Below, one piece after another: positions 962 to 62,069 of a stretch of 64,000 bases of DNA. The notes beneath the pieces are model-generated. The model was not told where the DNA came from, did no database searches, and saw nothing but the letters and a program-made list of their open reading frames with translations. Numbering within the stretch: the first letter of the stretch is position 1; each line of letters begins with the position of its first letter. This DNA comes from Amoebophrya sp. A120 (taxonomy: Eukaryota; Protista; Dinoflagellata): positions 2,461,151-2,525,150 of the forward strand of contig CAJINV010000007.1 of NCBI GenBank assembly GCA_905178155.1. The letters are read 5' to 3'. The translations under genes and the position numbers were made by a program.

Positions 962-3900
962 TTATGTTTCTTTAGATGATTTTGCAAGGCATATGCTCAG
1001 CAGGGCGTCCAGATACGCCGTGGCTGAGGCACTGGACTTCGACAAAGCCTTAGGCGCCATCTCCTGGTCGTACGAGTTGGTTCGGCTTAACGCGTTTTTC
1101 AAGTAGTCTTCCAGTTTTTCTTCTTCTTCTTCCCGTCCCTGCTTGACCTTCTCGCCCACCGCTTCCCGGACGAAGTACGAGCGCAGCACGATCTCGCAGG
1201 GGCGCCTGTGCGCCAACAAGTTCTGCCGTCGCTCCGGCGTCAGCTCCGCGTAGGGTTCTCCGCAAACCTTCACGATGTACTCTCCCTTCTGCACGCCGCT
1301 GGTTTCTGCCCACGAATCCGCGACGATGTCGACGATAAAGTGATCGCGAATGTGAAACCCGAAGCCGAGTTTCTCCACCCCGAAGGGCACCGTGACGGTG
1401 CGCTCTGTGTACAGGCGCTGCTCGATAGGCTATCAAAGTGAAAAAAGCCCCCACCCCATACCGGAGACGGAAGATGCGCGAATTTGTGATGCTGTATTTG
1501 AGTACACAAGTCGACTTGTATTGCTAGAAGGCCAAGAGACGAGGCTGCGGCCTAAATTGCAGGCAATCTGTCATGCTGTTTCCCACTTCCAGTTGCCTCC
1601 TGTCATCCTGGAGCTGCAAGGCTTTCCCACGCTAGACAGCACTACAGTCCGCATCTTTTGCCTTCTAGCATCACAAAGCTGATTTTTGACCACAAATCTG
1701 CATCACAGATTTTCGCCTTGATATGGGGAGGGGGGACTTTTCATTGCAATATAGGCGGCTTGATGTTCATCGACCCCGTCACCGCTCCTGTGCTCGGGCT
1801 GGAAAGAATTTCTGAAGAGGTCATCTTAGAATGCATCGCGGGAACGACCACCGGAGACTCTCCATCCGGGTGGTCCTCCTTTCCCTCTTCATCTGGCCCG
1901 CCGGAGGAAATTTGCATCCTCTCCGCTTCGTCGGCCCCCCGTTCCCCCTCTGCGTAGGCGCTGCTCTGAAAAAACGTCGGAGATTGCAGCTTCTGGTGGG
2001 GGTGGGGCTTTGAACTACCTGAGCTTTTTTGCTTTTCGTCGTAACGAAAATAACGAGATCGTGAACCAGAAGCTTTTTCTTGATCAACAAACGACTCCAC
2101 TGCGGCAGGAACTGAATTTTCTGCTGCAGCTGCTGCTACAGGCGCCGACTTCTCGAGGAGGGACGACAAAGAATCCCGCTCCTGTGTCGGTGCACCATCT
2201 TCAAATACACCACTATCCTCTTCCCCCTCGTCCCCTATTGCGGTACCGCCAGCAAAGGCTGCGAAAGCGGCTTCCATTTTTCTCTGTTTCGGCGAGAGCT
2301 TGGCCACCGGTTGTACCGCCGAAGCCTGTCCACCGCGTGGTCGTGGTGAGGCACTTTCTCCGGGAGTTTTTTCATGCAGGGTGACCTGGTCGACGTCGAG
2401 CTCGTCCACCGCGGCTGCGCTACTATTAAATACCGCAGCTGCGACGTCCTCTGCTGACTGATACAGCTGCGGAGTTGTGCTTGTGGTTCTAGAAACTCTT
2501 GGATTCGAAACCCAATGGTCGTGCACAACCCAAATATTCCCGGTTCCGGTCAACACGACGTAATTCGGATCATAGGTGTCGAAGCACCGGATGCCCGGGA
2601 CCTGAAATCCGCACAGGTGATTGCGATTCACCTGCATGTAGTCGCGAAGCTTGTACTTGCGCAGCAACCCCCGGCAGAAGAGACTCACCGGCGCGGAAGT
2701 TTTCCGCGAAAAGCACTTCGCCGTAATTCTGCAGTAGCTTTCCAGGTCCGTCAGCGTTTTGTTTATTTCCCCCGACAGCAAATCATGATTTTTCAAGCTA
2801 CTGCTGCTCGAGGTACTGTAGTTGCTGTAGTTGGTTGCAACGACCTGTCCTGCGAAAGAGAAGTCATCCGCCGACAGTGCCTCTACGGAAATTGGTGCAG
2901 TCGCGGCAGCGAGGAGACTATGCTTGAGGACAACCGAAGTGTCGGCGTCCAGACAGACGGCGGAGAGACTGCGGCTGCTCGTGCACACGAGCGAGATGGA
3001 GCGGTAGGTAGCGGGTTTTTCTTTTCTGGTTTCGTACGGGTTGGCCTTGATTTTCTCAGCTGCTCTTATTTCGGATGCTTCTGTTGTCGTGCTGCTGTTC
3101 ACGTACACCCTCAAGCTGGTCGAGTCAAAGGTCTTCGGCAAGCGATTCGAAGGCACTTCCAGCACGTTCAGACTCTTCCCCGCAGATCCATGCGGCCCTC
3201 CGCGTGGTGAGGTAATCGCAACGTCAAGGTGCCGGTGTCCTTCCTTGTTTGTTTCATCAGAGGAGTCACTCTTGTTGTTTTTCGGAGTCCTCTTGTTTTT
3301 CAGCTCATCAATAGGATCATCTCCAACAAGCCCAATGGCGGTTGCGATTCTGGCCAAAAACGGCGATGCCTCGTAGCTCGTCTTCGAGACTGCACTAGTT
3401 GGTGCTGGCGAAGCCCCGAGGCCTAGCGGCGGTTCTCCAAGTTTTTTGACATAGTCATTCGTATTCTGGCTTTCTCCATCTTGCGCTGCCGGCGGTGAAA
3501 TAAAGGAAGAGACTCTATCCTCAAAGATCCCTCCGTCAATCGACACCGGCTTGGCCAATTTCCGCCAGACCAGCAAGGCCGCCCCGAGGTCTAAATCCAC
3601 CTCTAGGATGGACGGCGCAGTTGGGGATGTGGCCAGCTGGTGCACAGCAACTCCAGCGGAAGTCGTAGCGCCGTAACCGCTGGCGCCCCCTGTTTCCGAA
3701 GCTGTAGCAGATCCTCTTAAGACCCGCCATTCAAAGTCCTCTCCCGCTCCGGAATAGTCGCCGTCCGTTAGGTCGCAGGCGAAGTTTAGCTTGTATTCCG
3801 GTAACAGAGGAATCTGCCCAACCGCGTTTCCGGACAGGGTAAATATGCTTTCCATGGAGGCATGCTGCTGTTGATTCTCGTGTGCTTGCGCACACACAAC

Positions 3901-6687
3901 AAGTGGTCCTACTTGCGCCGATGGTTCTTGCACCAGCACCTGCGCATTAGTCGCTCTCGTCGCACTCTGGCTTTGCTCTTGTTTTCCCGGACTGCTGACC
4001 AACCTGACGTCGCTGCCCACAGGGTTCAGCAATGGTCCGGTCCGGTTTTGGTCGGGGAACGTCGAGAATATTGGCTCAACGCCGGGAATCATGGGCTTTT
4101 GGACCTGATAAGATAAAGATGCATGGATCGATGTTGTCACAACCATAAATTCAATTGTGAGAAATATCCGCTTAGAACTTTAGGCTTCACTCCACGTGAT
4201 GAACACCTTTTATGTAAGCATGACGCTACACAAAAGACTACTAAACGACATCAATGCAGATAACCAAAATCGAACCCACCGCAGTACCGTCTTCGGCTGC
4301 TTCAGCCCCACCGTCCTACTGCCAGAGCCGGTGAATGACAGTGGCTTCGTCAGAAACGCAGACTCTTGCAACAACGGCGTGGTGTGCAATATAGAGCTGG
4401 CCGTGGCGGCGCTTAGCGGAAGTGCCCGGCTAGTGCTCTGCGATGTTGAAGGTGGATCCGCTAGTCCTGCGCCAGGCGGTGGTAGTCCAAGGGTCAAGTT
4501 CACTGGGGGCTGCAGATAGTTTACGCCGGTACTAGGTGTACTAATCATGCCCGTGGTCGTGCCGTGCTCGCCGCCTACGGGGGAGAAGTTTTGTTGATGT
4601 TGCACCATCCCCGATGTGACCGACGAGAAAAACACAACCCGCCCATCTGGCAAAATCGCGCTCGAGGGTGCGTAACGGATGCTGGTAGCTTTGTAGTACT
4701 GGGACTGAGTAGTTGGAGAGCCAGGGGGGGACGAAGAAGAAGACCTCTTTGCGGCCCGACTCCCACTCTGGATGTTCTCGTCCTCCTCTTTCGGACTCCC
4801 CGGTGCCGGCGGTGATTTTGTTACATTGTCCTTACTGTTTGTCTTTGTGCTGTTTTCTTCCCCCGCCGCGTGGCCGCCACCGGAACTACGAGCTAAAGCA
4901 GGACTCGCTGCGCTTGACAACGCCCCATTCACGACAGCCGCGCCTTCCTGTTGCGTCGCCCGGTTCACCGCGCGCTTCAATTTCTGCCGCGCGCCCTCGA
5001 CGACGAACTTCTTTCGCTCCTTCTCCCGTAGCGCCGCTGCCTGCTCTTTGTCCTTCTCGCTTTTGCTTTCAAAAAGCGACGCCATGGTCGGGCGCGCGTA
5101 GTGCGGCAACTCCTTCTGTTGCTCCTGCACTCTTTTCACCACGTCAGCGAAAGATTTCATCTTGGTCTTCCGTACTGGCTGCTCTACGTCTTGAGCAGAA
5201 TCTTCTTTATCATAACTGTTGGCCGCCGCCGCAGTCGGCGTTGCGGTTTGCGGTCTTCTTGTGGAAGAAGCAAACACCGGCTTGAAGCGTGACGGTACAG
5301 AACTATTTCCATTCGATGCAATATTTGTTTTCGTCGTTGCGTCCTCGTCGTACTTGCTCAACATGCTCGCATTTTCGTTTCCATTTCCTGACGCTGTCTC
5401 GTGCAGATCCACGCGAACTGTCGGTGTTTTAGCATGTTGTTGCTGATGCAGTTGCTGCTGGATGTTCTGTCGTACCACTGCCGTTGCGCGCCCTTCGGGA
5501 AGAGTTGTGCCCGCTTTAGTGGTCTCGGCGTGGTAATCGTTGCTGTTCATCGTATTGTTTCCTCCAGCATCGAAAACACTTACCCTTTCTTTCCGCTCCA
5601 TCTGTTGCAACAGACCCTGAACGAGCTGCAAACTCTTCCCCAAATTCTGTGGCGTTCTCAAATGTTACATTCTCAACTGTTACATGAATTTGTAATGCAA
5701 GAACGGCGAAAGTGAAAGGTGGAAGATTGCGCCTTTTGCATTACAGATTTGGCACAGATTTAGATGCTGTCTAGCCCTTCGGATATTTGTCATGCGAAGC
5801 AGCTTGATCGCGGCGATCTTGGTGGTGCATTTGCATCACAAATCATGTAACAGTTGAGAATGTAACAGTTGAGAACGCCATAAATTCAGACTGACCCGGT
5901 CCGCCGAACTGGCACTGGATACCCTAGAAGCCGTCCGGGCACCTCCGTGGTCGGCACGCACCGGGCCGGGGGGATGAAGCACTTTTTGGAATCGACCGTT
6001 CAGCGGATGACGAGAAGGAGCCCCGTTTTCTTGTTGAGCATGGTGGTGTAGCTCCAAAGTGGCAGCTGCGAACGCCCCGCTGGCCGTAGTCCTCTGCGCA
6101 ACACTAGACGCAGCTGTTTCTCGTTGATTTTGATGTAGCCCAGCATCCACTTCATTTTGATTATCATTATGATTTGTTTCGGTTAAATCACTCGTCACCA
6201 CGCCGTCCTGTCCAAACTGCCGCGGTGTCTTCACCGTCTCGAGGCGCACGTTTCGTAAAAAAGGTTCCGGAAACTTCGTGTTTTCGATCAAGCGAAACAC
6301 CTGCGGAAACGCCTTCCTCGACAAATTCAACGCGTCCATATTTCTCGCCACGTTGTCGGGAAGCGCTTTGCTGCCGTGGCGGGCCGGAGCGCTGGTGGCC
6401 TCAACGTAGTTTTTTGTACTACTATTCGGTGGAGGGACCGCAGAGCCTGAACCAGCAGAAGGTGAGCCACCCACGACTGGAGCCACGCTCGGTGACGAGT
6501 TTAATGCGTTCAGTTCTCGCAACTGTGACTGCTCGAGCACGCGTCTGGGCGTATTGCTCGGAACAGAACTCATCCGTGTCGCCAACGCCTCGGCGTGCAA
6601 CCGCATTTTCCGTCGGGTCCGCTCGGTCAAGTCGTGCGTGTCCATGATCCGCGGTGTTGTGGAACCAAAAACGGAAGACGACATCAT
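962..6687 (-). CDS. Large low-complexity protein with C-terminal PDZ domain (multi-exon)
   Basis: ORFs 5836..6687, 4210..5661, 1741..4146 and 962..1390 join in frame via introner 5648-5882 (RVSLN|LGKSLQ), a probable GT-AG intron ~4106-4285, and introner 1431-1751 (KPPI|EQRLY). Last ORF has a PDZ signature KLGFGF...SWAETSGVQKGEYIVKVCG. The 3' end may continue into small exons at <600. Confidence 0.65.
1431..1751. mobile_element. TIR introner, 321 bp, TSD TAGGC
   Basis: Left end tatcaaagtgaaaaaagcccccaccccata vs reverse complement of right end tattgcaatgaaaagtcccccctccccata. taggc at 1426-1430 and 1752-1756. Removing 326 bp restores frame. Confidence 0.85.
5648..5882. mobile_element. TIR introner family A, 235 bp, TSD AATTC
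   Basis: ~40-bp TIR t(g/a)tggcgttctcaa(a/c)tgttacattctcaactgttacatga. aattc at 5643-5647 and 5883-5887. Removing 240 bp joins two ORFs in frame. Homologous to 57393-57627 in opposite orientation. Confidence 0.93.
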
Positions 6688-8187: not shown

Positions 8188-10918
8188 TTAGGCCGTTCCA
8201 CTTCCTGCACTGTGCTCCTCCCCAACCTTCTTGAAGTGCAGATCCCAATCGTACGTTCGCGCCCACTCCGGGGTGTGCGCCGAGTCGATCCACAGAGCTA
8301 AGTCGCGGTCCTCCTTGTGCTTGAAATCTGGGGCACGCGGGTTCCGCTTGTCGTTGCGGCAATCCAACCTGAGGTTGCAATTGATGCGTGCATCATAATG
8401 CATTCTCATGCTTCCTGACTGATTATTTGGACAAATGCGCGAACACGATGAAGCCGCACGGCATGTTGACAAGAATCACAAAAAAACCTCATACCAGTCT
8501 GCTCCTTCCATTTTCAAAGATTCCCACTTCTTCTCCACCGGGATGTACGGTTTTCGCTGGTAATTGTTTCGATACGGCGACCGCCCGAACGAGTTTCCAC
8601 CGCTTCGCGGGTAACTGTTGCTGAAAGATGAATGCTATACATTGCAAAAGTAGCATCCTTTGCTTTCCTATCCTCGTACTACTTTTAGTAGAAATAGCAT
8701 TACAGATTTTTCCAGAAGGGAAAATAGGATTTGTTGTGCTGCTTTTGCTATAGAGACGAGATATGTGTGTCATGCTGTAGTGCAATAGCAATTAGCACGA
8801 GTGCGAAGATACTTTTGCAATTCATAACCGCGGTTGCCCGTACTGCGACCGGGGCGGGAGACTGAAGAGCGTTTTGTTCGAGATTTGTAGTTCTTCATCT
8901 TCTGCTAGTCCTAGTGCGGGTAGTTCTATTAAATCCACAGTTTCTACATCAATGAGTCATGTCTTTGAACCATAACGTTTCGTTGCGTTCCTTTCGAGTG
9001 TTATCCACAATGATCACACACCCAAGCGGCCCATTGGACCGCGCCTATTCATTGGGGCTGGGCGAAGCAGGCCGTGCCTAGTGTCCCTAGCGGGGAACAG
9101 CCCACTCCACCACCTGCCCCCAGGCGGGCAAGACCCCCCCAGAACCCCACCTACGGTGGTTGAATGGGGGGAAACGCGCCAGCCCCAGCCCCACTTGCCC
9201 ACCAGGGGAAAACAGAAAACCCATCCACGGCAAACAGAGCAACCTTCCAACGCGGGCAAAAGTCGCTATAATCAGCAGCAGAGGTGGCTTCGCGTTACCT
9301 TATCCTTACCCGAAGGCCATCACAAAGGAACGTAGTAGAAGAAGCATAGACCATATTTGCAAGGAAAGTGCGCGAAGCGGCAGGCAGCGCCTCCTAACCG
9401 GTAATGAGTAAGAGAAGCAAAGCCCTTCCACGAAAGTAGAAGTAACACTCACTACACCCTAGCCAGCAAGGCCCTGAAGGCAACTCACATCCGCGTCTGG
9501 TGGAACAGCTAGCAACCAAGTAGCAAGGCCAATACCCGCACCATCCAACTGGAAATCCCCGAGTATCACCCGTGCAATATCCAATAAGCAGTACAGCGCC
9601 AGAGTCCCCAAGTCCACCCCCGCAAACGGAAGGAGCTGCCCAAAGGAGGACTCCCGCCCACGTCTACTGCAAAAGAAAGCGAAAGAGAGAGACTAATATA
9701 TATCCGGCGAGGCGGCAATACTGACGTGGCAAACCTACAGGCAGGAGAACAGCGCCGCCATGCACTCCGTCCACTGAGAAACGTCGCAGAGAACGGCTGC
9801 GGTGCCCCACAGGGGAGCGGACAAAAGCGCCGGAAGACCGAAAACTAGCCTAAACCTCCATTCCGAACAAGGCCCGCGGCCCCCTCCCGGGGCGAAGAGA
9901 TAGTTGCGCGCCCAAACGAGTTTCCACCGCTTCGCGGGTAACTGTTGCTGAAGGAGGACCGCGGTTGCCCGTACTGCGACCGGGGCGGCAGACTGGAGAT
10001 ACGTTTGTTCGAGATTTATAGTTTTTGCAGGTCTTCCTCTTCTGCTAGTGCGGGTACTTAGTTCTATTAAATCCAAAATTTCTACACCAGTGCCTCATAC
10101 TCATGTCTTTGAAAAGCTATGACGACTAAGAATACTGGTCAAATTGATCCACTTTGTAGCCTAACGCTTCCAACGCTGCTGCCATGTCCGGTTTTCCTTG
10201 GTAAACCTGAAAATGAAAAAATGGTGTGATCATGATCAACATATAAAAATTCGGCGGGACAAGAACTGTACAACTGTCATTTCGCGGGTGAAAAAAATGA
10301 CTTCACGGATGAGTGTACAGCTAGCATCGAAGTGGTCGAACTCACTGCTGCTGTTTCCTTGCATGAGCCCTGCTGTAGTATGCCGCTTGTAACTACTACT
10401 AGTCTTCTTGAGTTGTACATCGATCAATTCTTGAATAGTACCCTTTCCCGCATCAGCCACTGCTGATAATCCTTCGGCGTTTGATCAATTGCAATCCCCC
10501 GGTGCTTGCCGAAGCGCATCACATACTGCGGACGGCTCCCGTCACTTATGCAAGAGTTGCGCAAAAGTATCGCTATACCTATAGTCGGTATTGTACTGGT
10601 ACTAGTATAACATAAGCTGCAGCTAGAACTTTCCCAAGCTGCATGATGCTAGTTCAAGTAGAGAATGAAAAAATCTGTAATTATTGCCAGCGCCACGAGT
10701 GCTGCGATACTTTTGCAAAGAATAGCAGTTGTGTAGCACCGACTGGACGAGGCTGCGGTACAACTTGCGCCGCCCAGGAGATATTGAAACCTGCCTGCAG
10801 AACAGGATGTGTATGTGATGGGGACGGCTGCGCCACCAAGGGTTGCTAAATTTCGCCCTATCACTGATTGCACCTGAGGAGTCAGCGCTCCGGTGGTCGT
10901 GCGGGAAGCCACAAACAT
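8188..10918 (-). CDS. Putative organellar ssDNA-binding protein: DUF3820-like (FGKH.G) motif + OSB-type PDF motif (multi-exon)
   Basis: Manual splice gives MFVASRTTTGALTPQ|VSISPGRRKLYRSLVQSVLHNC|ISDGSRPQYVMRFGKHRGIAIDQTPKDYQQWLMRER|VYQGKPDMAAALEALGYKVDQFDH|LPPRSQYGQPR|SSFSNSY...EKKWESLKMEGADW|LDCRNDKRNPRAPDFKHKEDRDLALWIDSAHTPEW... GT-AG introns 10207-10441, 8862-10135 and 8369-8494; introners at 10555-10724 and 8636-8826. Contains an internal exon duplication. Confidence 0.6.
8636..8826. mobile_element. TIR introner family F, 191 bp, degenerate TSD (aatgc/accgc)
   Basis: tatacattgcaaaagta vs revcomp tatgaattgcaaaagta. Removing 8631-8826 gives CAA CCG CGG TCA TCT TTC, matching the uninterrupted duplicate at 9908-9992. 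Confidence 0.88.
9908..10113. repeat. Diverged duplicate of 8581-8969 lacking the introner (empty site)
   Basis: Blocks acgagtttccaccgcttcgcgggtaactgttgctgaa and accgcggttgcccgtactgcgaccggggcgg are adjacent here but separated by the element at 8636-8826. Similarity continues through the intron to catgtctttgaa. Confidence 0.9.
10555..10724. mobile_element. Decayed TIR introner family F
   Basis: gcaaaagtatcgc...gcgatacttttgc inverted pair; right end resembles that of 8636-8826; flanks gcaag/gcagt. Removal keeps frame (HNC|ISDG). Confidence 0.6.
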
Positions 10919-17846: not shown

Positions 17847-19068
17847 TCAGCAAGGGCGGGCGCCAAGCAGCGGAGGACGTACTACTACCTCCCGACGCCC
17901 CGCCCGGCCGAGTTTGGTGCAGGGAACTCGGAGTGCCGAGCAGGCTCGTTGCGGCCGCGCCGAGATTTGGCGCGACAAAGGACTGCCCTTTGAGAGAGGA
18001 TCTTATTCCCTGAAAATTTTCATTTTTCCCCGGCCCTACTTATCACTTTTTACAAGACAGAAGCTGAAGCAGGCTCTTCGTCTTCTTCTTCTTCTTCATT
18101 TTTTGCATGACAGATTGGACTATGGGAGTGATAAATATAAATATAAATTTTCAGGGAATAGACTTGGTCAAGGGTGACTGAGCGGTGGAGGAAGACAGCA
18201 GACTGTGAAGACCCCCTCCAGAAGAGTGCTGCAAGAACAGCCCAGGCGACGCAGCAGTGGCGGAGCAACCTGTCGTGTTGAAAAGTGTGGCTCCACCTGT
18301 AGTCGTCCCGAGTCCACCTAGATGCACCTGTGTCAGCAAGCCTCTCGTGGAAGAGGTCGAAGCCGATAAAGGATGGTGCTCGCCGGTTGATAGGTCCTGC
18401 TGCGTTATTGCTGTAGCAGTCCCTCTCATGCTGGACGAAGAACTAACTTGTCGCGACGCGCCCCCGGCGCTGTTGATAGGTGGGGCCGCACCGCCGTTTA
18501 CATTTACACCAAGATGAGAAGAGGTTGCAGCAGCACCACCGGCAGCTAGCGAGGCGTCCTTTGCGGGAGCCGGTTTATTGGCCGCCTTAGATCCAAGAAC
18601 AGCGGCAGCGCTCGCATTAGTGGTTGTACCATTGCCTTTATTACTGTCAGGCGCAAGTGCTGCAGCGTCGGAAGTTTTAGCTGAGGTTGAGCTTGTTTTC
18701 ATCTGTGACAGTTGTTGCAAGCAGTGCTTCAAAAGTTCGTTTCCAGCCTGGTATTTCTTGTCGAAATCTGCATCTACTGCTTCGTTACATTCAGGATCAG
18801 CTGCTTCTGATGCGGTGTCCGAGCTACAACTTGAAGCATTTATATTTTCATTAGAGCTCTCCCCCGGCCTAAGATGCTCATCCATATAGTCTTCCTGCAA
18901 TTCACTTACATATTCCCGCAACATCGCCCGGACGTCTCGCCGGAGACTCTTGCACACCGCGTTTTCCTTCTTTCGCTGTTCGAGCTGGTCATTCTTCTTT
19001 TTCAGCATGGACCGCAGCCGGCTTTCGGGAGTCCGGGTCGCGGTCGTATTTGATGATGTCGCATTCAT
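17847..19068 (-). CDS. Hypothetical coiled-coil/low-complexity protein
   Basis: ORF 18151..19086 continues in frame (LTKS|SLKGQSFVAP) after removing introner 18004-18160 plus 5 bp. 3' end uncertain; may extend into ORF 17509..17853. Confidence 0.55.
18004..18160. mobile_element. TIR introner, 157 bp, degenerate TSD (gatct/gactt)
   Basis: tattccctgaaaattt at both ends in inverted orientation; contains gcatgacaga. Confidence 0.8.
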
Positions 19069-49366: not shown

Positions 49367-51175
49367 TGGTAGCTCTTCTTGTAGAAGTAGAAGTCGTTTA
49401 TACTATATTTTTACAACCGCATGGGAACTAGACGTACAACGTTCACATCGTCAGATAAGTTTAGAAGTTCCACAACACTTTAGCGTTACAATGTCAGTGA
49501 TGAGGCTTCCAGGGAGTCAAAATAAGATGGACACGGATCATCAAGAAGATGATGATCATGAAGGTTCACTTATGATGTCGCTTGGTGTCGCCTGTCATCA
49601 AAGCAGAAAAATGGGCAAAATCCTTTGCAGTAATGTGAAACAAACGATTCAAATTAGCATAAACTGATAAGATGATCGTCATGAGCTTCTGCTTCATCTT
49701 CTGGGTGTTTTTCGATGTATGGCTGCGGATCTTCTTGTTTTGGCTTTGGCACTGTTCATCCTCCTGCGTCTGTTTCTGTAACCACGTTCGTGGCGTCCCC
49801 AAAAATCTGCAACATATCAAGAGGACATTTGGATCTACTTGACGATAGCACCACCACTTGTCCGTTTTCTATTTTTTCAGCACTTCTGTCACGATTTCTT
49901 TTGGACCATTGGCATCGCGACAACTGGTACGAGAACGACACCAGGCTGCCTCTACTTGGATAGTTCTGTCACAAAGCTGCCAAAAGCGACTGAGCGTTCC
50001 TTTCGAGTTTGTGCAGCATCTCCTTCCGGAGGTGACCAATACGTTTACAACCATGATCCAGAACAAAGCGCTGACCATACTGTTTGCGAAGTTCTGTCCT
50101 GCTTAATAGGTCAGAAGACATTCAGTCGCGCCGACGTTTTCTTCCTGTTGGTCTTGGTTGCGTAAGTAGTGACGAGTAGAAGTAGAGCTCGCGACCACAA
50201 AATTCAGGAGGAGCAACTCTCAACGATTATGCTGCTGCTTGGGATTTGGTACATTTTTCTGTCGCGCGCAAGCAGGCCGCTTTGCTGTAGGTAGTTTGTC
50301 GCTATCATATCGTTCATCGGGACTACACAAGAGAGCTCTACTTTTCGTTTTTTTCCCAACATCTAAAATACCGCATGATTTTCCTACTGGCGGTAGTCGA
50401 TGCGTCATTTTGAAGATGCTCATCTCGGCAATTATACCTACAAGCTTCCAGGTGGAGTGATTCTGTCGTGCGAAGCTTCTCCTCCTGTACGAACAGAGAA
50501 AGCAAAGAGGTATTTTCGCTGTAGACTAATATTCTCAATTGTTTATTGTTTTTCGTTAGATTTCTCAAGGAGATGTCGCAATACTAGTGGTAATTTTATC
50601 TGGGTAGTTTCATCTTGGATCTGTATCATTGTCAAATTGTACATGAGCTAAGACTTCATAGAATTTTATGCAAGTCACAGTACTGGCAGCACTGAGGCTC
50701 CACCTACCAAGATTCGGGCGGAATCTGGTTTCGCCATACATCAAAAGAAGATATTCGTGTACATCAGTATCGCAGCAGATACAAAAAGTTTGTGTAGAAG
50801 AGTCGCGAGTAGATTGAGTTTGAGATTGAGAGTGTGAGTTGTGATCATAAAAATTTAAGTTTTTCAATTACATCCGAAGGATGGATGGTTGTTCATTCAA
50901 GATAATCTGCTTCGAGTGTTCAAATTCAACATGTTTCTTTCAAGAGGCGATGCGAGAGAACAAAGAAAGCTCCGAATTGCTGCTCGTCGTTTCCACAGCC
51001 ACAACGTTGGAAAGGCTGCGCCAGATGTCGTGGCTACAGCAAATGCTTTTTCTCGTAGTGGTATGCATTGCAAATGTGTCTTGGTCTGGATCATGCTAAG
51101 GAAGGTCGACACAAAGATTTGGCTCTGGATTGAATAACTACACAGGAAATAAGTAAGTAGGAGCCATCTCCACCA

Positions 51176-54100
51176 TCAAACTTGTGAATGTGTTGCTACA
51201 GCTCGTATTTCACATAATTCTTGTGGGTCATGCCAAAGCTGCATCGCAAATCTTTGCATCGTTCCAGACGGAGACCTATTTTTTGCAGTGGATAAGTAGA
51301 TGATTTTGGAGAAGATGCAGACGACGATGCCGAGCAGGGAAACGATCACCATCCCGTGAATATCGCAAGAAAAAATATGTTTCACTTTAAATCTGTAAAT
51401 GCAAAGGATCCTCCATCACAAAAGATGCCGCTGGGCTGTCGTGCTACACATGCAAAGCAATATAAATATAGCCGTATTTATTTCTCCTAGAGACAATGCT
51501 CGCATGATGATGTTGACACATTTTGATTGTCTTTGTCATGCGGAAGAGCAAGAAACCTGTGAAGATGCAGCAGCTACTAGCCCTGCTGCTACATCAACTT
51601 TGCTAAATCACTACAGTGAGACAGTTTTATTTTCGTGCGATAGTTCATCCAGCTCGTGTAAAACATTTGGCTTTCCGCGGCCCGTTTGATGGCATCCGTC
51701 TGCTCGGAAACCGACATCACCTTCTTGTCCGTCTTCGCGGCTTCTTGGGCCTGATATGAACGTAGTGGTAGTTTTTGATCTTCTTGTTGAGACAGCACAG
51801 GATGGTCATGGTCGCGCCTCTATCTTGTTAGAGTAAATTCATTCGAACCTTGGAAAGGAGTAGCACTAGGCAAAACTACATCATCTCAGTTCGTTCTATA
51901 CCGAGGTGGAAACCGTTGCCAGCTTCTGCGTGTCTTCTGCGCTGCTTGAGATCACGTTTTTGATACTTCCCATCTCCTGCCGAAGTTCGCGCAGTATGCG
52001 GTCTTTTTTGGCTTTTTTCTCCGCGGCGCTCATCTCAATACGCCGCTTCTCGCCTTCGTCTGTATTTGAGTTTGTTTCATCTGACGGAGTTGTAGATCGA
52101 CATCGATTTTTGCACTTAAATAATATCTGAGCATCACAGCTGACGTTCATCATGTCGTGACATTGGTGCAGACCACCATCTTCTATTCTGAATGAAAAAA
52201 CGAGATGAATTTGTTCTCAAACAGCGCTACTTCGTTCTATACCCAAGACGTAGTGGATTTCGTTCTTCAACTTGAGCGCGCTGGCTTCCATGTCCAGCAT
52301 TTGGGATTTCACGTGCAGCAGGGTCCTTGCCTGGCTCTCCTCCGTCTTGTGACTGCCCATCACGTACTGCTTCAGCATGCCCAGGATGCCATTAATCGCT
52401 TCCGTTTGCTCGCGCTGGTTCTCTATGCCCTGCTCAGGCGGAACGATTTCTTAGGTGGAACAAGGTCGTGGTCAAGCCGAACGCTGTCTCGTCTGAAAGG
52501 GAAAAGTCAAGTCTGAATCTGATGTGATTCATCGTTTGCTCCTGCCTATTTGCATTACAAACTTTACGCAGATCATTGTTCCAATGTGGTCGTTTGGAGT
52601 TGTCTTGGAGATCTTTTACTGCCATGCTGGACTTGTTCATGACAAATTCTTCCAGTTCAAATCGTTCCGTCTGAGGAGGCCATACTCTCAAACAAAAAGT
52701 TCTTTTTGTGAAGGTCTGCGTACATGTCCCGAATTTCCTCAGCGACACCGGATTATGAGAGTGCACAGAGCTGCTCCCGCCCTTCATTCATAACTTGCAA
52801 TTGCGAAATATTACTTGTTTCACTGCTACATCTACAGTCCACCGTGACTTGCGGAAGATTTAATTATCATGCGGAAGAAGCATCCTTTGTGGAGTGCTTC
52901 TCGTTCTCCTCTTGCTGCTCATGCATGATTCGAAATGAAAAGAGGGAGTGGAATCGTGCACTATCGTACAGACATCTCGGAGCCCACGGTGGCGAGGTTG
53001 TAGTTCCAGCTGTTGGATAATTTGGATCTTGATTCATTTATTCCTGCTTTGTAAACTAGGCACAGATTGTGAAGCCGTAGTAGTTGCAGGCGAGGGTGGA
53101 TGAACAAAATGCATATAGTTAGATGCAACATGGAAAAATCATCAGTAAAGTTTAAATTTTCTACGTGCGGATCTTTTTCACCGCCGCCCTGAAGTCGCCG
53201 GGTGCCTGTCCCGCGACTTTGGGCGTCCCGCTCCAAGCTGACCAGCCCATGTAGGTCCGCTTTGGGGGTTCGTAGTCTCTCAGCATGCAGACATGGCGCC
53301 AGTAGTGGGCATTGCGGTCGCTGGCAGCGCTCGTGCCCGTAGCCGCGAATCTGATTTTTTTTTATCAAAAATCAAAAAAAAATCGACGTTTCGCGTATAG
53401 CTATAGAATGCGAGTTGATAAACCACACAGGGAAGAAGTAGCAAGAAGGACGAGGTGGACGTCGAGCAGAGAGACATAGAGCTGTTCTAGCAAATAAGTA
53501 CATATTAAATTTTCGATCACAAATTATCTATAAATTTTACTTGTAGTCCACGCTGACAGATCCGGCTTTCACCCGCACTCGAACGTCCAGTGGTTGATTT
53601 CGAAAATCGATTTTCATTGCGTTTTTGTCCGGGAAATTCACACCCATCTGGAGTTTCTCTGAGCGCGGTGTTCTGGTACCTGCGGCGTTTGTTTCGTTTG
53701 TCAAAAAAGAACGAAGCGTTTTCACGCAATTACATCACAACTACCCGCCTGCTGCGTGGATGATGACTGCAAACAAAACCTATAATAGGGTGACTGATGG
53801 AGATGGTGAAGCAGAGTGGTAGGTGACATACAACATCACTACACAAAATTAAAACTGAGCACTTCTTCTATACAGCTCAAATTTGGGTTCACATTCCCGG
53901 TCTCATCTTCGATCGAGAAGATGAGGCCAAACCCCCGGAGCGTCGTGTCGTGGCCGAGGAAATCGTACCCCAAGTGCGCCAAATTGTCGTTCCAGTCGCT
54001 ATATCAAAAGTAAAAGTGTCTGGGTCTGGAAACTTGTGATGCTGGGTGGCGTCTCATGATGAGGCTACGAATACTGGCTCAGCATGGCAAGTTTCTGAGC

Positions 54101-55088
54101 TCCTAGGTGTTGCCTATTCTGCATGACAAACTGCGGCTCTGCATCACAGAAAAACGGAGCTCTTTCTGGGTAACGTGCGTGACAGATTTAAGAGTCATGC
54201 CAGACAAGCATGACAAAAATGAATTCTTCCAGACCCAGACATTTGTGCATTTGATACGCTATCAGCCTGGTTCATCGGAGAAGAGCCGACGATGTTTTTC
54301 GCGTTCAGCACCGACGTGACTTGAAAGTCCGTCAGCCAAAATGCCACGCCGACGTTCCGCGTCTTCGGGATGATGTTCAAGGCGGACACCTTTCAGGTAG
54401 TTGATGTGGGGACCGACGATGGGGGAGAGCAGGACGACGATAAATTTGTATTTGATGGAATACGGATAACAATTTCAACTTCTACACGTTCACATACTGT
54501 TTACTGCATGATCCAATTCCACCAAGTAATTATGATCAAAGCAGAAAGAAGAACCCACTCTAACTATACATCCAGTTGAAACTGCACTTCCCAGTTGTCT
54601 GTCGTTATCGCTTCCCGGTTCCACAGCTGGCCGCTCCTTTCCGTGACGTCGGTAAACAGCTGTATCTGATCCGCCATGGGTATCGCGCAGGATTCTAGTG
54701 ACCATAGAGCCAGCCCGTTGTCGGTTATGTTCCCGTCCCGGAACGTGTGGTGTACTAATTCTATCCATTTCACCCGCTCGCCCCTTCTCCTCGGCGTGTG
54801 CATAGTGTCATACGCGTATTGCGGGGGCTGGTTGGGCGGGGGTGGCGGGTTTTCCGTGGCAGAAACGCCTGGGATCATGTTGATCGAGGGGAGCAATACG
54901 AGGGAGGAAGATAGTATCGCTGGTATAATTGATGTTGCTAAAGCTCCTGCTGCGGTTGAGATTGCTGAGGAAGAGGTGGATGCCGCTGCACTACTAGAAG
55001 TACCGCCGTCGCTGAAGGGAAAGGGGGAAGTACTGGAGGAAGCGGCCAGGACGCCAACAAGGACGCCACCGGGTCGAACGATCACCAT
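51176..55088 (-). CDS. ERGIC-53/VIP36/Emp47-like L-type lectin with coiled-coil stalk and TM helix (multi-exon)
   Basis: IQLFTDVTERSGQLWNREAITTDNWEVQFQLDV, GVAFWLT, LRGFGLIFS, IDFRN, YMGWSAWSG, coiled-coil exons, TM GMVIVSLLGIVVCIFSKII. C-terminal tail uncertain. Confidence 0.75.
51361..51642. mobile_element. TIR introner family D, 282 bp, degenerate TSD (gtgaa/gttca)
   Basis: tatcgcaagaaaaaa... left end; ...ttttcgtgcgata right end. Removing 51356-51642 joins SWMN|GMVIV in frame. Confidence 0.82.
54002..54256. mobile_element. TIR introner family B (same orientation as 25912), 255 bp, TSD CGCTA
   Basis: cgcta at 53997-54001 and 54257-54261; interior colinear with 25912-26164; join QADS|DWND. 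Confidence 0.94.
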
Positions 55089-56838
55089 TTTGGCGAGTAG
55101 TGCTCCTGCGTCGTCGTTCTGGATTGGTTTCTTTATTGTTATTCACGTCCTCGCGCCGCTTGCGCTTCCTTATGCACAACTGCGAATAAATTTACGCCGT
55201 TCAGTCTCGGCTTCTACCTTTTATCAGATGAGCAGCCTTTTTAAAACGACTCCGAAATTTTCTTTGTCTCAGGGAATCGCTACAAGACCAGGGTCTATGC
55301 TTCAGCTGGTGGAGGTGAAGTACTTCGCTGGCTTGCGATGAGCTGCTAGCCCAGATAGTAGAATTTGTTGACGAGTGCGCTCGTTGCGAGATTTGGCGTC
55401 GATTTGCTTGTACTGGTTCTCGGTTCCCACTCGGACTTCTACCCGTACTAGCTTTTCAAGATGACGAGAGTGATGATCTCCTTATTTGTTGCATTTCACC
55501 ACGGTATTTTCAAGTGCGCCTCTGCGTTGCAGTCGGTGCCGGTTCTTGCCGCAACTTATCCAGCGCCGCGTCGTAGAAGTTGTACTATGGGCGGTTCAAC
55601 ACGTTTATTTTTCTTGCCCCGGCGGGTTGAAAGCAAGTAGAGGTGGATAATATAGGACGGCGCAATTATGACCGGAGCAGGACGGCAAATAAATTGCAAC
55701 AAAATTAGCTGCTTGCGGCACGACTTGCACTGCTGGTCCGAGGGCTCGGAAGAGCTACGGTGCGGGGCATGTTGGTTGTGTTTTTTGTGGAGTCTATCTT
55801 AGTTCCTCTTTGAACAGTGGGTGTGGGAGAACGAGTGGTGGTCGCGCCTGGACGACTACCACCTGCCTCCAATAAAATAGGCTCTTAGAGATTGTACGAA
55901 CAGGGCTCTATGTCGAGTGACCCATTCTAGTACCTTGTCAAGGCCACGGCGAAAAAGAAATTGTTTGAGAAATGAAGATTTCTTAGGGACACAGCAACAT
56001 GTGAAACAAATATCTAACTCGACATTAGCAAAGTACAAATTTTGGTGTGGCTGCTTTTTTCGCGGCTTCGAAATCGATGAAAAAGAAGCGATCGTTCTAA
56101 ATTAAAAGCCGCGGTCGATAATGAAGACAATACGATCTTCGCGATTTTTCGAAGGGCGACGAATTGTCTCCATATGCATCTCTCTAGCTCTGTGCATTGC
56201 GAGGCGAAACTAGAAAATTACGTTCTATCGAGGATAATCGATCTTGTACCGTATTCGATCTCGATCCCAAGGGAGCTACGTTTAAAAATGTCTTTCGACT
56301 GAGCAGCTACAGCATGTGTGATCTACTTTCCTACGCGGAGATCCTGCGCGCAGGACGAGGTCGCTCGCGTTTGGTGGAAAGGTGAGTATGGTACTAGCTC
56401 GGCCTCTCTAAGGAAAAGAGCCAGGAGCTCGAGCTTTCTTTATTTTTGCACCTAGTGGAGGTCTTCATCATGGAGATGACTTCTACTTCATGGTCCTTGT
56501 CTTCATCAAGTAATAGAATTACAAGCAGTGGACCGACAGCACGTTGTAGATCAAATTGGAGGCATCGACGTTCGCATCAATCGTACAGGTCATCGTTATT
56601 CAGGTCGTTGTCGTTGCGTTACAATTTGATTCGTGTAGAGGTTACAGTTGTTCATCAAGTTCTGAATCTGAGGTACAAACACTTAATTTGTTGCTTCATC
56701 ATACATCATGATCATCCGCAACGAATTTTTACAAAAGTTGAAGTTCGAATTCAATTCGATGCTCCTACACCAGGAGATGGGAAGACAAAGTCTTTGTCTT
56801 ACAAATCTTATCTATCATGCCTTCTTGTTTATTACGTT

Positions 56839-59800
56839 TCATGCCTGCGAAGAACCTCCAGCTGCGATTCCATCCGCCAGAACGTGCTTTACTTTTTTTG
56901 CCCACTGGTCCCGAACCTCTTCGCTGCGAAAAGTAAGCTCCAAAACAGGCGTGTTTACGCTGCTCCACCTGCCGTCGTTGAACAGCAGCACGATTTCCAA
57001 ATTTTGCGTCCGCTGGCCGTGCTGGTTCTCAAGGTAGATATGGATGTGTCAGAGTTGAAATCGACAAAGTTGAAATAATTTGCCATGCATAAAATGGATG
57101 CCAGTTGGAACCCAGTTTCCAAGTGGCGCATGACAAATTTCGGTGGTCCCTAAATCCAGTTTGTCATGCTGTTTAGGCAAAGAAGAGTGACTTTCTCATG
57201 CTACTTTAGCAGCTCGAGCTGTAGCCCTAAACAGGCTTACAATCGACCTCACTTGCCTGCTCTGCAACGCACGCGCCTCGGGTCATGCGTTTTATGCATT
57301 GCAAATTATTTCAACTCTGACGATTTCAAACCTGACGCTTCCATAGTAGATGGCGAGATCGTACACCTCTGTTTCGTACTCGTCGCTTTCGATATGGCGT
57401 TCTCAAATGTTACATTCTCAACTGTTACATGATTTGTCATGCAAAATTCCAATCAGAATCGATACGACCATGCTGCTTCGCATGACAAATTCCCGAAGGG
57501 ACAAACAGGATGAAAATCTGCGCCAAATCTGTCATGCAAAAGGCGCAATCTTCGCCCTTTCAGTTTTGCCATACTTGCATCACAAATTCATGTAACAGTT
57601 GAGAATGTAACAGTTGAGAACGCCATATTCGACGGGGTGCGTTTGAAGCTCTTCAGAACTGTCAAGAAAGGAGGTTTTCTTCATCGTCACAAACTTCGCG
57701 CCAGTCCCGCTGTTCATATATCCGCAGTAAATAAAAATTTACCGCACACATACAACTACAAATCAATGGGGTTTCGGCATGACAAACATTGCGCTCAGTA
57801 GCGGAAGCCTTACTTACAAGCGTTGCTATACATATCTAAGTAAGGTCTTTGTGATGCATTTTGTACGTGTACGGGATGAAATTTGCATTGCGTATCACAT
57901 ACCGGAGATTCACGAACGCGAATGGTGCGGTCTTCTCGCTGTTTGCAAGGAACAGCAACCCGCAGGACAGGTAGGCGAAGCAGATCTTGGTGTTATTTGT
58001 CTGGTTCTCCGTACTGCTGCCCTGCTGTTGGCCCCGAGCAGATAGCGGCTCGAAACTTGTACTGGATGAGAGAAGGGCCCTTGTAGGTTGAAACGCGGTG
58101 GCAATCTTCGTTGGAGAGGCCTCATGCGAGTCGAGGTCGAGGATGATGTTTTTCTCACCAGATGCCCCCGAAGAAGCAGCAGCACCATCTCTAGACGCAG
58201 AAGCAACCAGATCTATCGAAGTCCAGGACGCTGCAACTCCTACCGCTGACAAAGCATTTTTTGCTTTTGATTTAGAGGTTGTCCGTCCATCATCGAGCAA
58301 GTTGCTATTGGACGCGATTATTGTCGTACTACCTCCCGGGGTGCTAGAAGACCACCCTCGCATCATCGTGGACATCGTGCTGACAACCACGCGCTGCGAC
58401 TTTGCTGCTGCGCTACTTTTTGCATCTTTCATATCCCCTTTCTTCAGCTCATCCACCTTCGCCGTGGGAAAAAGCTGCATCGATGGAGCAGACGCTCGAG
58501 CGTTTTTCTGTTTTCCCTTCGCGCCACCAGCTGTGCTGTCCCCTTCTAAGTTTCTTCCGCTCGTCGAGGCACTGCTCCGAGCGGTGGTCGACGCCGTTGC
58601 GGCTGCAGAGGATCCTGACATCGCGACGTGTTCCCCCAACACAAACCCTAAATTCGCATACCGCGAGCTCCTTCTGCCCGTGGATTGCGCTCGTCCTGAT
58701 GTGGTACTAGTCCAGATTGTGTCGCTACTGCGCGCCGTGAAGTCCCCAGAACAAGTAGAAGCTCCTGCTTTGTTGATATCGTGCTGCGGAGAAACGACAT
58801 CTCTTGCCAACATGGGTGGACCACGAGGACCTTGTGTATCTGCAATTGATGCGGTCAAGGCGCCGCATGAAACTGTATCTGTAAATGCACTTCCTTCCGC
58901 ATAATTCAGCATCCTTGACGCAAACGCCTCGTCGTGCTCAAACACTGTGTTGTGACTTGTGAAATTCCCGGTGAAACTCCGCACCAACTCGTCCAGCGAA
59001 ATTTGGTTGAAGTTCGCGTCGCAGAAGTGGAGAATTACCGTTTCTGCGAGGACGTTGGCACTAGTTCCACTGCGGGGTTCTACTTGAAGCGACGAAGAAG
59101 TTGTAGTCGGCTTTGGTTCATCTTGTTCTACCGCTGGCACTAGTTGTGTAGCGCTAGTAGTCGCAGCAAAGCGCTCCAACAGTTCCACCACACTCTCCTC
59201 ATCTGTGAAGGCAACGATCCCGGCTTGCAACGCCGGAATCGGCTCAGCGGCAATCAGGTCGTAGAGTTGATGCAAGAACGGGGCTGCAGCGCTCTCCCCA
59301 TAAGTGTCCAAATCCCCAAATGTACTGTCAATGTTGCTGTTGAGACTGATCCACTCTTCTTTCCCCAATTTCCGATGCTGGATAGTTGTAAAAGTGCCCG
59401 GTGCGTCTCCTTCTACTTCCGCCGCGCCGGCAATCGTCAGCTTCGTGGAAGTTTCATCACTCTCACTATGCAGGTTGCAATGCAGCAGCACGCACGACGT
59501 CAGCAACCCGTACAACCCCTCAAAGCACTTCAATTGCTGCAACACCTCAATGCCCTCCGGTTCCCAGGCGTTGGGACGCTTGTTCGGTTCCTCGATGACT
59601 GGATTTATCTTGCTCGGCGACGAACCGGAGCCACCTCCTCGCCCTTGTTGCGCGTTCATCTGATGGCTTATTTGCACCGCATTGAACTTCCTTTCGCACT
59701 GTCGCCAGAATGTCATGGCGGTGTGGTACAGAATGCGGTCGTACGAAACGGAAAAACTTTCCCCAGCCCATTTTTCAAAAATTTGCATTCCCGTTTCTGA

Positions 59801-62069
59801 TAGCCCAGCTAGTAGAAAACGTTCAGCAGCCGGCGAAGGTGGCCCCCTGCGGATTGCCGGGGAAAGCCCGGGATTATGGAGGAGGCCCCGGGAATCATGG
59901 AGGAGGCCCGCGTGGGGCTGCGCGAAGACACCCGCAACGGGAGGGCCGAAATTCCGCATCACGAAGACATGACGCGGGAATGCGCCGCGTTTGGCGCGGA
60001 TGTGTTGGAGGGATTGAGAAAATGCATTGGCTTGATTTAGTGTTTTGCTAGTTTCGAAGAAAAAGGGGAAGCGTTCCGCTTCCAAGATTTTGGCTACCGG
60101 CGGCCACAAACCTGGCCCGCAAACGACTGGACTGTGGGCCTGGGGCCAGAAATTGTAATATGCCGACTCAGCCCGTGTTTCGGCTCATTACAATTTCTGG
60201 CCCCAGGTCCGCAGTCCAGGCGATATTTGGCTGGGGCCAGAAATTGTGTAAAGTCCCCAATTGTGGCTTCCTCGGCAGCAGCAATAGCTCCTGCTAGCTG
60301 CTCGAAAGCAAGGGCTTTTTCCGGCTATTCGTGGCCCGCGATCGCGTCGTGCTGATCCGGGCCTGAGCTACAATGCTGGGCCTGAGGTAACCAGGTGGAG
60401 CAGCGCGCTGCTCTACAATGCTGGAGACGGGAGAAGGGTTGGCTGGTGTTCTTCAAGAGGATGGTCGCGCGTCACCGGGCTTCCCCCGGCACTCGCCAAT
60501 CGGTCGCGCTCGCCTGGTGCCGAATGGTTTCTACGACCTGGACTACGCGGGCCGGGAGTGCAAATTTTTGAAAATTGGGCTGGGGGCAATTTTTTCGGGT
60601 CGTAGGTCGAGCTTTACCAAGTCCGGTGGGACCGCTAAGAAAGAGAAAACCCGCTGCAGTAAGCCGCAGACGCCGCAGTGGGACAGTCGGATGCTGTTGA
60701 TAAACTCCGCACGGAGGACACTGGACAGAGAGAAGGGCTCGGACAAAAACCACCCGACCTTGTCGCTGCAGATCGTGTTGCGCTTCAGAAACGTGGTCAA
60801 GGAGAGCGGGAAGTCCTGCACCACATTGGTGGCGACCAGGAAAGCGAGGCCGATGCCTGGGTCTTTGTTGAAAAACAGAATTCCAAGTTGGGCCAGTTCG
60901 GAACGAAATTTGTTCGTTGTCAACGCTGGTTTTCTCGGAACGAAAAACGGCTCGTAACGGGTGATATTGCTAGTTGCGGACGAGGATGAGTGATCTGCGT
61001 GTTCTTTGCGCTGCCGTCCTCTACTTGCGACCTGCTTCCGTTGATGTGGGAGATCTACTAGTTCCTCGTCTCCTATGTCATCAGTTTCATCGCTTTCATC
61101 TACTTGTGATTCATCTGCAACTTGTTCTCCAGCTGCGTTATTCGGGTACTGCGACGCGCGTCCGTGGATGACTAGCTGCGATTTATTGTTGCCTGTATTA
61201 TTTCGAGGATGTCCACCAGTTGTTGTAGTAGGCGAAACTGTTGCAGCATCCTGGAAGGCTGCGGCGGCACCGCGAGTTGCTGCTGATGTTGATGAACCGC
61301 GGCCGCGAGTTAGCTCCAACTCGTCGACAATGTCCTCGGGAAGATCTAGTAGAGCTGACGCACTGTTTGCTGTATTTGCTCCGCTGCTCGTGGTTCCAGC
61401 ACCGCCACCACTATCAGTGGTCAACGACAACAAGTTGGCGGCTTTCACGATCGCGTCGAGCAACAACCGTCGGAGCTGAGAATCGCCATCGGCCAGCGTC
61501 AACACGGTTTCTCCTTGGTTGGTTTGGGCGCGGAGAAGGGCGTTCAGCGTTTCTGCGTCCAGTTGCGCGGCGCCCTGTTCCAGCAACTCCTTCGTGACGC
61601 TGAGGCGCGAAACGGCACACGCGACGTGCAGCGCCGTCCAGCCAAAACGGTCTTTGGCGGTTAGGAGGGATGTTGATTGTGATTGTCCTGTCGTGTGGAC
61701 TTGGCTGCTGTTCGAAATTGTACAATTTGCTCCTGTTCTAGTTGAAGAGCACACCAGTAAATCCCGCACCGTCTGGACGCTTCCACAGCGACACACGACA
61801 TGCAGTGCAGTCGTCCCGTTCCAGTCTGTCACCATTGGATCCGCCCTCAGACACAGCAACCAACGGACCATGACGAAATTTTGCCCGGCCGCGAAGTGGA
61901 AGAGCTGCCGCTCCAACGTATTTTCCAAGTGGCGCAGCGTGTCGGGGAAGACATTGCCGGCCGGCGCGATCGTGGTCAAATCCAGTTCTCGGGTAATCTC
62001 GCATTCCCCGTAACACGAGGCAGTGCTGCCCTCCGGCTGGCACAGAGAGGTGATCAACGTGTTGCCCAT
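56839..62069 (-). CDS. Ankyrin repeat + Sec7-like + PH domain protein (ARF-GEF-like), 5 exons, all four introns introner-type
   Basis: ANK: DWNGTTALHVVC, DRFGWTALHVAC. Sec7: FFNKDPGIGLAFL, LAVPPDLVKLD|RIL, YGLLTSCVLLHCNLHS, FLHQLYDLIAAEPI. PH: CFAYLSCGLLFL...LELTFRSEEVRDQWAKKV. Confidence 0.85.
57039..57345. mobile_element. TIR introner, 307 bp, ~55-bp TIR, TSD GTAGA
   Basis: tatgga.g.gtcag..ttgaaatcg.ca.agttgaaataatttgc.atgcataaaa at both ends. gtaga at 57034-57038 and 57346-57350. Join DLAIY|LENQ. Confidence 0.92.
57393..57627. mobile_element. TIR introner family A (opposite orientation to 5648), 235 bp, TSD TTCGA
   Basis: ttcga at 57388-57392 and 57628-57632; join THPVE|SDEY. Confidence 0.94.
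57719..57894. mobile_element. Degenerate TIR introner family E (~181-bp intron)
   Basis: Ends resemble 25620-25818; flanks tcata/tcaca. Removing 181 bp gives NLRY(V/M)NSGTG in frame; exact ends uncertain. Confidence 0.65.
59742..60604. mobile_element. Long TIR introner, 863 bp, TSD GGTCG
   Basis: ~50-bp TIR tacga..c.gaaaaa.tt.ccccagccca.tttcaaaaatttgca.tccc. ggtcg at 59737-59741 and 60605-60609. Removing 868 bp restores the Sec7 KLDRIL motif. Confidence 0.93.

Follow-up and report, generated by a model that had tools for sequence, protein, structure and literature searches.

The window analysed here, a stretch of 64,000 nucleotides of Amoebophrya sp. A120 (GenBank assembly GCA_905178155.1, contig CAJINV010000007.1, positions 2,461,151 to 2,525,150), contains 25 elements with terminal inverted repeats (TIRs) and 5-bp target site duplications (TSDs), located between positions 765 and 60604 in about ten genes, all on the minus strand. 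They are the introner elements already published for A120, whose non-canonical removal is also known, and the finding is thus a rediscovery within a published genome; the link to Amoebophrya introners drawn in the original prediction, which was made from the sequence alone, holds for the same genome and the same elements. The present analysis adds a very probable single cut register and an asymmetry between the two element arms, which make the mechanism of removal more directly testable.

A scan for TIR pairs (arm score of at least 10, at least 3 of 5 TSD matches) returned 24 pairs in the window, overlapping calls included, of which 12 had a 5/5 duplication; five shuffled windows yielded 0, 0, 0, 2 and 1 pairs. 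The approximately 21 elements first proposed are therefore real, and curation with RNA joints as a guide brought the total to 25. Their size ranges from 109 to 863 bp (median 235), the duplications are identical in 14 and match at 1-4 of 5 positions in 11, and the 5' end is TAT in 21 and TAC in 4. The inverted repeats fit the published pattern (TAT, about seven variable nucleotides and at least three A), TA..TA termini are present in the set, and the elements form families, with repeated copies in the window and 70-94% matches in loci of a related assembly. They are likely non-autonomous DNA transposons, which would have inserted at 5-bp staggered cuts.

Three of the host genes were assigned by similarity. 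CRM1/exportin-1 (44208..49366, minus strand) carries elements at 44438..44646 (TSD 3/5) and 44731..44839 (5/5), and an ankyrin and Sec7 protein gene (56842..62069, minus strand) carries four, at 57039..57345 (5/5), 57393..57627 (5/5), 57719..57894 (5' TAC; 4/5) and 59742..60604 (5/5), the last being a GC-rich, 863-bp element with TAC...GTA ends, which the RNA cover does not span. Both genes are 100% identical to Amoebophrya sp. A120 records, as measured on one exon of each, and CRM1 of strain A25 shares 56% identity with that of the window over the best stretch. A mitochondrial carrier gene (30290..32275, ends approximate, minus strand), recognized by a Pfam Mito_carr match on one exon and presumably encoding a phosphate carrier (a label based on motifs), contains elements at 30679..30941 (5/5; 3' end ACA) and 31970..32136 (5/5). 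Adjoining CRM1, region 37840-43500 holds an uninterrupted frame of 1,900 codons with SPX and citrate-transporter-family domains and without any element; we take its product to resemble a phosphate transporter.

The remaining elements comprise (i) five within a minus-strand transcript at 50118..56065, which has a weak legume-lectin-like Pfam match: 51062..51294 (TSD 4/5), 51361..51642 (3/5), 52424..52684 (4/5), 52754..52968 (5' TAC; 3/5) and 54002..54256 (5/5); (ii) four at 18004..18160 (3/5), 21974..22234 (2/5), 22339..22525 (1/5) and 22639..22885 (5' TAC, 3' ATG; 1/5), of which the last was discovered through its RNA joint; (iii) five known from the TIR/TSD scan, at 765..993 (4/5), 1431..1751 (5/5), 25620..25818 (5/5), 26355..26615 (5/5) and 28130..28394 (5/5); (iv) 25912..26164 (5/5), of the same family as 54002-54256; (v) 5648..5882 (5/5; 3' end ACA), of the family of 57393-57627 in the opposite orientation; and (vi) 8636..8826 (3/5).

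Several further observations concern these elements. The 863-bp element holds an inner inverted repeat (60124-60222), and an RNA contig of run X1 that derives from a diverged copy aligns at about 59740-60330, which indicates that some copy of it is transcribed; it is a lead to a larger or autonomous relative. Two frames that overlap or adjoin it are without a Pfam match, an autonomous copy not having been sought, and no transposase was found in the window, where no dedicated transposase search was made. The motif GCAT(G/C/T)ACA, possibly a transposase-binding site, has 53 of its 56 window matches inside elements (10% of the window), on both strands. Segments 8582-8895 and 9909-10026 represent a duplicated coding segment; element 8636-8826 is absent from the latter, where the repeat occurs once, so that this segment is a pre-insertion site or else a processed copy. 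A nested palindrome with internal direct and inverted repeats (28535-29011), immediately upstream of an ATG at about 28514, has outer arms beginning TATG/TAGG and was excluded from the 25. In the DNA run, one joint jumps back 257 nt, from just past the end of element 54002-54256 (54257) to just before its start (54001), which would correspond to copies arranged head to tail, the junction of a circle or an artefact of the assembly graph. Elsewhere in the window, a gene with an RWD domain has a repeat of raised DNA depth (16263-16498) in its GT-AG intron 16143-16548, short AGATC-type tandem repeats occupy the intergenic region 7140-7240, and a search against Rfam gave zero matches.

In the carrier, SHPADTLL reappears once element 30679-30941 is deleted together with 5 nt, and KTRIQLDP once 31970-32136 is; corresponding deletions bring back FVLGLF in CRM1 and KLDRIL in the Sec7/ankyrin protein, so that every motif (HPADT, KTRIQLDP, KLDRIL, FVLGLF) that had been said to reappear, in frame, on removing an element and one TSD copy was recovered. 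All six element junctions of the CRM1 and Sec7/ankyrin genes, including FVLGLF at 44438-44646 and KLDRIL at 59742-60604, are found in the A120 protein annotation (P0001 and P0078, respectively); this annotation is not independent of the RNA-seq work of Farhat et al. (2021), and the FVLGLF junction rests on it. A regular-expression search for FVLGLF in six CRM1 homologues gave zero matches, and wider conservation of the motif was not confirmed. The removed length is not a multiple of three in 14 of the 25 cases, in line with the expectation of many such lengths, and 8 of the other 11 elements carry stops in all three frames. The elements therefore cannot remain in the message.

Transcript evidence came from contigs of runs X1, X2 and X4 over positions 43500-61500 and 14000-24500. 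The RNA status of these runs is a guess of the tool and the contigs are cDNA-derived, but they splice GT-AG introns and thus behave as mRNA; they display majority forms only and may not be independent of the published data (Farhat et al., 2021; PMC7789003). The joints listed are 15 of 217 in the first region, five of them at elements, and seven in the second, four at elements and three at GT-AG introns. Nine of the 25 elements accordingly have a listed RNA joint, six more lie in 43500-61500 without one, and ten, including both in the carrier gene, lie outside the two regions. A raw-read RNA run (X8) matched with one 32-nt arm piece only. Following the RNA, an element call at 17986-18175 was narrowed to the inner 18004-18160, candidates 14400-14562 and 23089-23256, which the RNA does not span, were left out, and a weak candidate at 19725-19929 (TSD 1/5) was dropped, being present in the RNA of all three runs.

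All nine element joints, among those listed, skip the element and exactly 5 nt: 162 nt at 18004, 266 at 21974, 192 at 22339, 252 at 22639, 238 at 51062, 287 at 51361, 266 at 52424, 220 at 52754 and 260 at 54002. In a single RNA contig (50118..56065), five elements and five GT-AG introns have been removed together. In the DNA run X6, by comparison, depth is 0 at all nine joints, and DNA contigs 44810-54029 and 16469-24500 run unbroken across the joint sites. Each of these elements with its 5 nt is thus present in DNA and missing from the RNA contigs. As to the checks proposed with the original prediction, for non-canonical junctions in RNA and for excision in genomic reads, at these nine sites the elements are absent from the RNA contigs, GT-AG alternatives are unused, and none of the joints occurs in the DNA run.

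Removal of internal eliminated sequences in ciliates likewise takes an element with one repeat copy, and a comparable DNA excision in the transcribing stage might explain the same joints. Since contigs omit rare variants, a minor excised DNA form could have escaped. The zero depth at nine of nine joints, the unbroken DNA contigs and the contigs of element interiors found in the RNA runs all speak against it, and we consider DNA excision very unlikely.

The ordinary spliceosome might instead use GT/GC and AG ends supplied by the duplication or by nearby sequence, as in classical introners. None of the nine RNA joints can slide to GT-AG, and 24 of the 25 elements offer no such pair at all. The claim that sliding never yields GT...AG therefore stands for these 24 and fails for 18004-18160, where a pair exists two nucleotides away and is not used: with k defined as the number of upstream-duplication bases retained in the mRNA, a cut at the GT-AG pair (k = 2) would yield an equally long product, and three RNA runs from two samples give the product of k 3-5. 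Three of the nine RNA-tested elements (52424, 52754 and 54002) do begin with GT in the register described below, and the RNA-supported intron 51751..51901 (minus strand) is GT-AG in that register; a GT-AG pair in register would, however, be possible for only 3 of 150 perfect duplications in related loci. We give almost no credence to this explanation. Removal without GT-AG ends in transcripts that also splice GT-AG introns, as originally proposed, was found at nine of nine joints listed.

Where the two TSD copies differ, the RNA joint limits the position of the cut. The eight informative joints allow k of {3,4,5}, {3,4}, {4,5}, {4,5}, {2-5}, {3,4,5}, {0-4} and {4,5}, with the narrower limits at 21974 (3-4), 22339, 22639 and 52754 (4-5 each) and 52424 (at most 4). 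The sole value common to all eight is k = 4, and independent uniform cuts share any k in 0.3% of trials (P = 0.003). The element-free paralogue of 8636-8826 (about 9909-10026) retains the upstream copy, in agreement with k of at least 4. The intron would thus, in all probability, consist of the last base of the upstream duplication, the element and the first four bases of the downstream duplication, the cuts falling one nucleotide upstream of the 5' arm and four nucleotides downstream of the 3' arm (N-TA...ATA-NNNN; for example, C-TAT...ATA-TTCA). The upper bound of this register rests on two elements and the lower bound on three. Elements 22339 and 22639 are removed exactly even though their TSD copies share 1 of 5 nt, which argues that the direct repeat itself is not the guide. 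Of the TIR stem and the TSD, which were proposed together as guides of removal, the stem agrees with the predicted pairing of the arms, and the duplication is not the guide.

This register places the TA of the arm at intron positions +2 and +3, matching the local GTA donors: all nine RNA-supported GT-AG introns begin GTA, and all 25 elements begin N-TA. Intron 51751-51901 (G+TAT...ATA+TCAG) has decayed arms in the element register. It is the only one of nine to do so, and the data do not support the idea that GT-AG introns are for the most part decayed elements in register. Four of the nine RNA-supported GT-AG introns, all in one gene (51751-54569), begin GTATAG, two of them share GTATAGAACGAA, and the four may represent an old intron family.

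The same properties were followed in one public assembly, in which a scan with a single arm motif selected 150 partly overlapping loci (406 kb) without unique overlap with the window. An automatic caller, which requires TAT at one end and recovers 16 of the 25 window elements with the right ends, found 294 distinct elements there; an exact flush duplication of 5 bp occurs in 233 of them and one of 6 bp in none. Because the loci were chosen by one arm family and TAT was required, older elements are under-counted. The removed lengths are spread over the three frames (98, 72 and 93 of 263), the flanking frames join with one TSD copy retained in 22 of 23 testable cases, and 45 scored members of one family lie 25 in one orientation and 20 in the other. 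A codon model for which TSD copy is exonic gave no usable signal in these loci, with 25 mismatches scored.

These counts also bear on the possibility that the joints are reverse-transcriptase template switches across repeat-flanked hairpins, the true mRNA retaining the elements or being cut elsewhere. A hairpin with a direct repeat is a known setting for this artefact, and all of the RNA evidence consists of cDNA-derived contigs of guessed RNA status. Template switching would not, however, account for exact joints at 1/5 repeat identity or for a single register; retained elements would bring a frameshift or a stop codon into CRM1 and the carrier, and both the even spread of lengths and the joining of frames with one TSD copy point the same way. 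We therefore regard template switching as very unlikely. If removal takes the equivalent of one full duplication with each element, an element can insert anywhere and in either direction without altering the mRNA, and this explains how the elements have spread through coding sequence.

The sense strand was assigned with a coding model, which placed all 25 window elements on the minus strand (the window being partly its training region) and agreed in 37 of 44 adjacent locus pairs. It gave a strand to 183 of the 294 elements, leaving 111 without a call, and the exclusion of 6 more with a TSD below 3/5 left 177. Pooled with the window, TA is lost from the 5' arm in 1 of 202 elements and from the 3' arm in 10 of 202, and the third base is changed in 11 and 2, respectively (Fisher P = 0.0006; 0.01 in the related loci alone). 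By these sequence comparisons, U at +2, A at +3 and A at -7 are retained more than their pairing partners. Such an asymmetry tracks the direction of transcription, a further point against excision from DNA. An internal motif, GCATNACA, was rejected as a branch signal, as it is equally frequent on the two strands (267 and 294) and 35 of the 177 elements lack it in the sense orientation. No selection toward GT or AG at the insertion sites was seen among the 150 perfect TSDs, and a purine at the exon start (86 of 150) showed no bias.

Folding predicted end-to-end stems of the arms in 16 of 17 elements (12-30 expected arm pairs), the exception being 21974, as opposed to 0-8 expected arm pairs in nine canonical introns. 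Two readings of this stem were weighed. According to the first, to which we assign an even chance, removal is by an altered spliceosome positioned by the paired arms instead of by GT and AG. The 5' N-U-A would be read like a GUA donor with a relaxed +1 position, while the stem would set the 3' end alongside, fixing the exon join 4 nt beyond it; to these steps we give the same even odds. The conserved A at -7 may serve as the branch nucleotide, a position that is sterically plausible by analogy with short-distance spliceosomal and group II introns.

We favour the altered spliceosome because (i) the TA of the arm overlies the GTA donor, (ii) T is found at +2 in all 18 of the commonest non-canonical pairs of A120 (Farhat et al., 2021, Table S4), (iii) U2, U4, U5, U6, Prp8, Slu7 and Prp18 are kept in A120, with U1 snRNA undetected, according to the available text of the same study, (iv) the layout of inverted and direct repeats is also reported in 15% of the canonical introns of A120, as in 51751-51901 here, and (v) U2 spliceosomes of tunicates are described as processing mostly non-GT/AG introns (PMC13326754), a precedent. 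The fixed register and the stronger conservation of TA on the 5' side favour this reading at least as much as they do a separate, non-spliceosomal route.

A number of observations weigh against it. No constraint is seen at +1, -1 or -2, bases that known spliceosomes pair: all 16 combinations of first and last base are present among the 150 perfect TSDs, with G at +1 in 48 of 150 (39-48 in the flanks) and AG at the 3' end in 14. No branch-point consensus was seen; the sense strand of 35 of 177 elements has no GCATNACA; the GT-AG pair 2 nt away at 18004 is unused; the predicted stem spans +2 onward and would need to be melted; and decayed arms in register occur in one of nine canonical introns only. 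The arm asymmetry was first noticed in the window and depends on model-based strand calls, and among 11 unassigned variant elements the one with a usable call of its own (L125) opposes it. The narrow base of the register bounds and the restriction of the contigs to majority forms, both noted above, count here as well.

According to the second reading, which seems to us possible at somewhat less than even odds, a separate, spliceosome-independent route operates, in which a nuclease would read the arm stem and cut 1 nt ahead of it and 4 nt beyond it, the exons being joined by a ligase such as RtcB; such a route would converge on euglenid nonconventional introns or on a precise variant of SOS splicing. 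The lack of constraint at +1, -1 and -2, the presence of elements in both orientations (25 and 20 of 45), the neglect of the nearby GT-AG at 18004 and the contrast between strong predicted stems in the elements and weak ones in the nine canonical introns agree with it, and so do reports of a paired motif in Euglena whose spacers are fixed at 3 nt and 5 nt (PMC12501133), of Euglena introns released as circles (PMC11282704) and of SOS splicing triggered by paired TIRs and requiring RTCB (PMC12779559). Against it, the TA of the arm coincides in this register with that of the GTA donor, and the 5' TA is retained above its pairing partner; moreover, 21974 and 22639 are removed despite a broken terminal pair, and SOS splicing is described as imprecise and leaves indels.

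Taken to its limit, the altered spliceosome would imply that most A120 introns obey one unreported code, exon/N-UA(Y)...stem...AUA-NNNN/exon (the slash marking the exon border), read by a spliceosome requiring neither G at +1 nor a 3' AG, in which the 3' arm of the transposon replaces the missing U1 snRNA, the stem measures off the 3' site like a ruler, and branching takes place at the A at -7. We consider this extension doubtful. If it were true, every element insertion would be a working intron from birth.

The elements account for tens of thousands of introns in A120. A fixed register gives exact ends for tests of lariats, circles and end chemistry, names a candidate branch nucleotide, permits corrected annotation of junctions, and makes it possible to compare the A120 elements directly with SOS splicing and with the code described in Euglena. 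Should the spliceosome carry out the removal, it would be one that needs no terminal bases; should it not, A120 would possess a precise, genome-wide second splicing system.

The closest known system is that of A120 itself, for which the available text of Farhat et al. (2021; PMC7789003) gives 66,565 RNA-supported introns, 65% of them non-canonical, 29,850 of these being repeated introner elements, with inverted repeats composed of TAT, seven variable bases and a run of at least three A, direct repeats of 3-5 nt, and a proposed hairpin that joins the exon borders in a distinct mechanism. The window elements resemble these in TAT inverted repeats, border repeats, a size of about 240 nt, the existence of families, and RNA-supported removal without GT-AG. 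In the published text, however, the splice sites vary in position with respect to the hairpin, and the border is given as unknown (legend of Figure 3), whereas one register fits all eight informative joints here. According to the legend of Figure S23, the distance between the A120 repeats and the splice sites is 1-5 nt, and Figures 3 and S19-S23 may carry part of the register. It was not found in the portions of the largely open-access literature that were searched, including PMC11282704, PMC11453091 and PMC12005148. For the A120 families, the accessible part of Gozashti et al. (2025; PMC12130899), 22 of 58 A120 rows, shows mixed TSD lengths and site classes, and a TIR family with integrase-like homology is reported.

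Classical introners (PMC9860276) are likewise similar to miniature inverted-repeat transposable elements (MITEs), with TIRs, TSDs and a net-zero change in mRNA, but they carry GT/GC and AG or co-opt them from the TSD, whereas the A120 elements neither carry GT or AG nor select them at the insertion site. In fritillarid tunicates (PMC13326754), introns are also transposon-derived, non-GT/AG and present on a large scale, and an altered U2 spliceosome is invoked; they differ in keeping preferred terminal dinucleotides and U1 snRNA, and inverted repeats and Amoebophrya are unmentioned in the text searched. As to the transposons themselves, available descriptions of IS3EU/GingerRoot (PMC10045372) give the same TA..TA termini, occasionally TG..CA, with TSDs usually of 6 bp as against 5 bp in A120. 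SOS splicing in animals (PMC12779559) similarly removes TIR DNA transposons from mRNA without GU-AG ends and depends on AKAP17A, CAAP1 and RTCB; from the text available, it uses several cut sites and leaves indels, whereas the majority form in A120 restores the pre-insertion sequence, exactly at nine of nine joints. The nonconventional introns of euglenids (Nomura et al., 2025, PMC12501133; PMC11282704), a lineage unrelated to Amoebophrya, are described as non-GT-AG and likely MITE-derived, with a terminal stem, border repeats, and short fixed spacers that are longer on the 3' side, and they coexist with GT-AG introns; circular excision products have been reported for them. A terminal stem of the euglenid kind is predicted in 16 of the 17 folded elements, without the euglenid signature: the euglenid code reads N3-CDG...CHG-N5-6/purine, and that of the A120 elements N1-TA...ATA-N4/any base.

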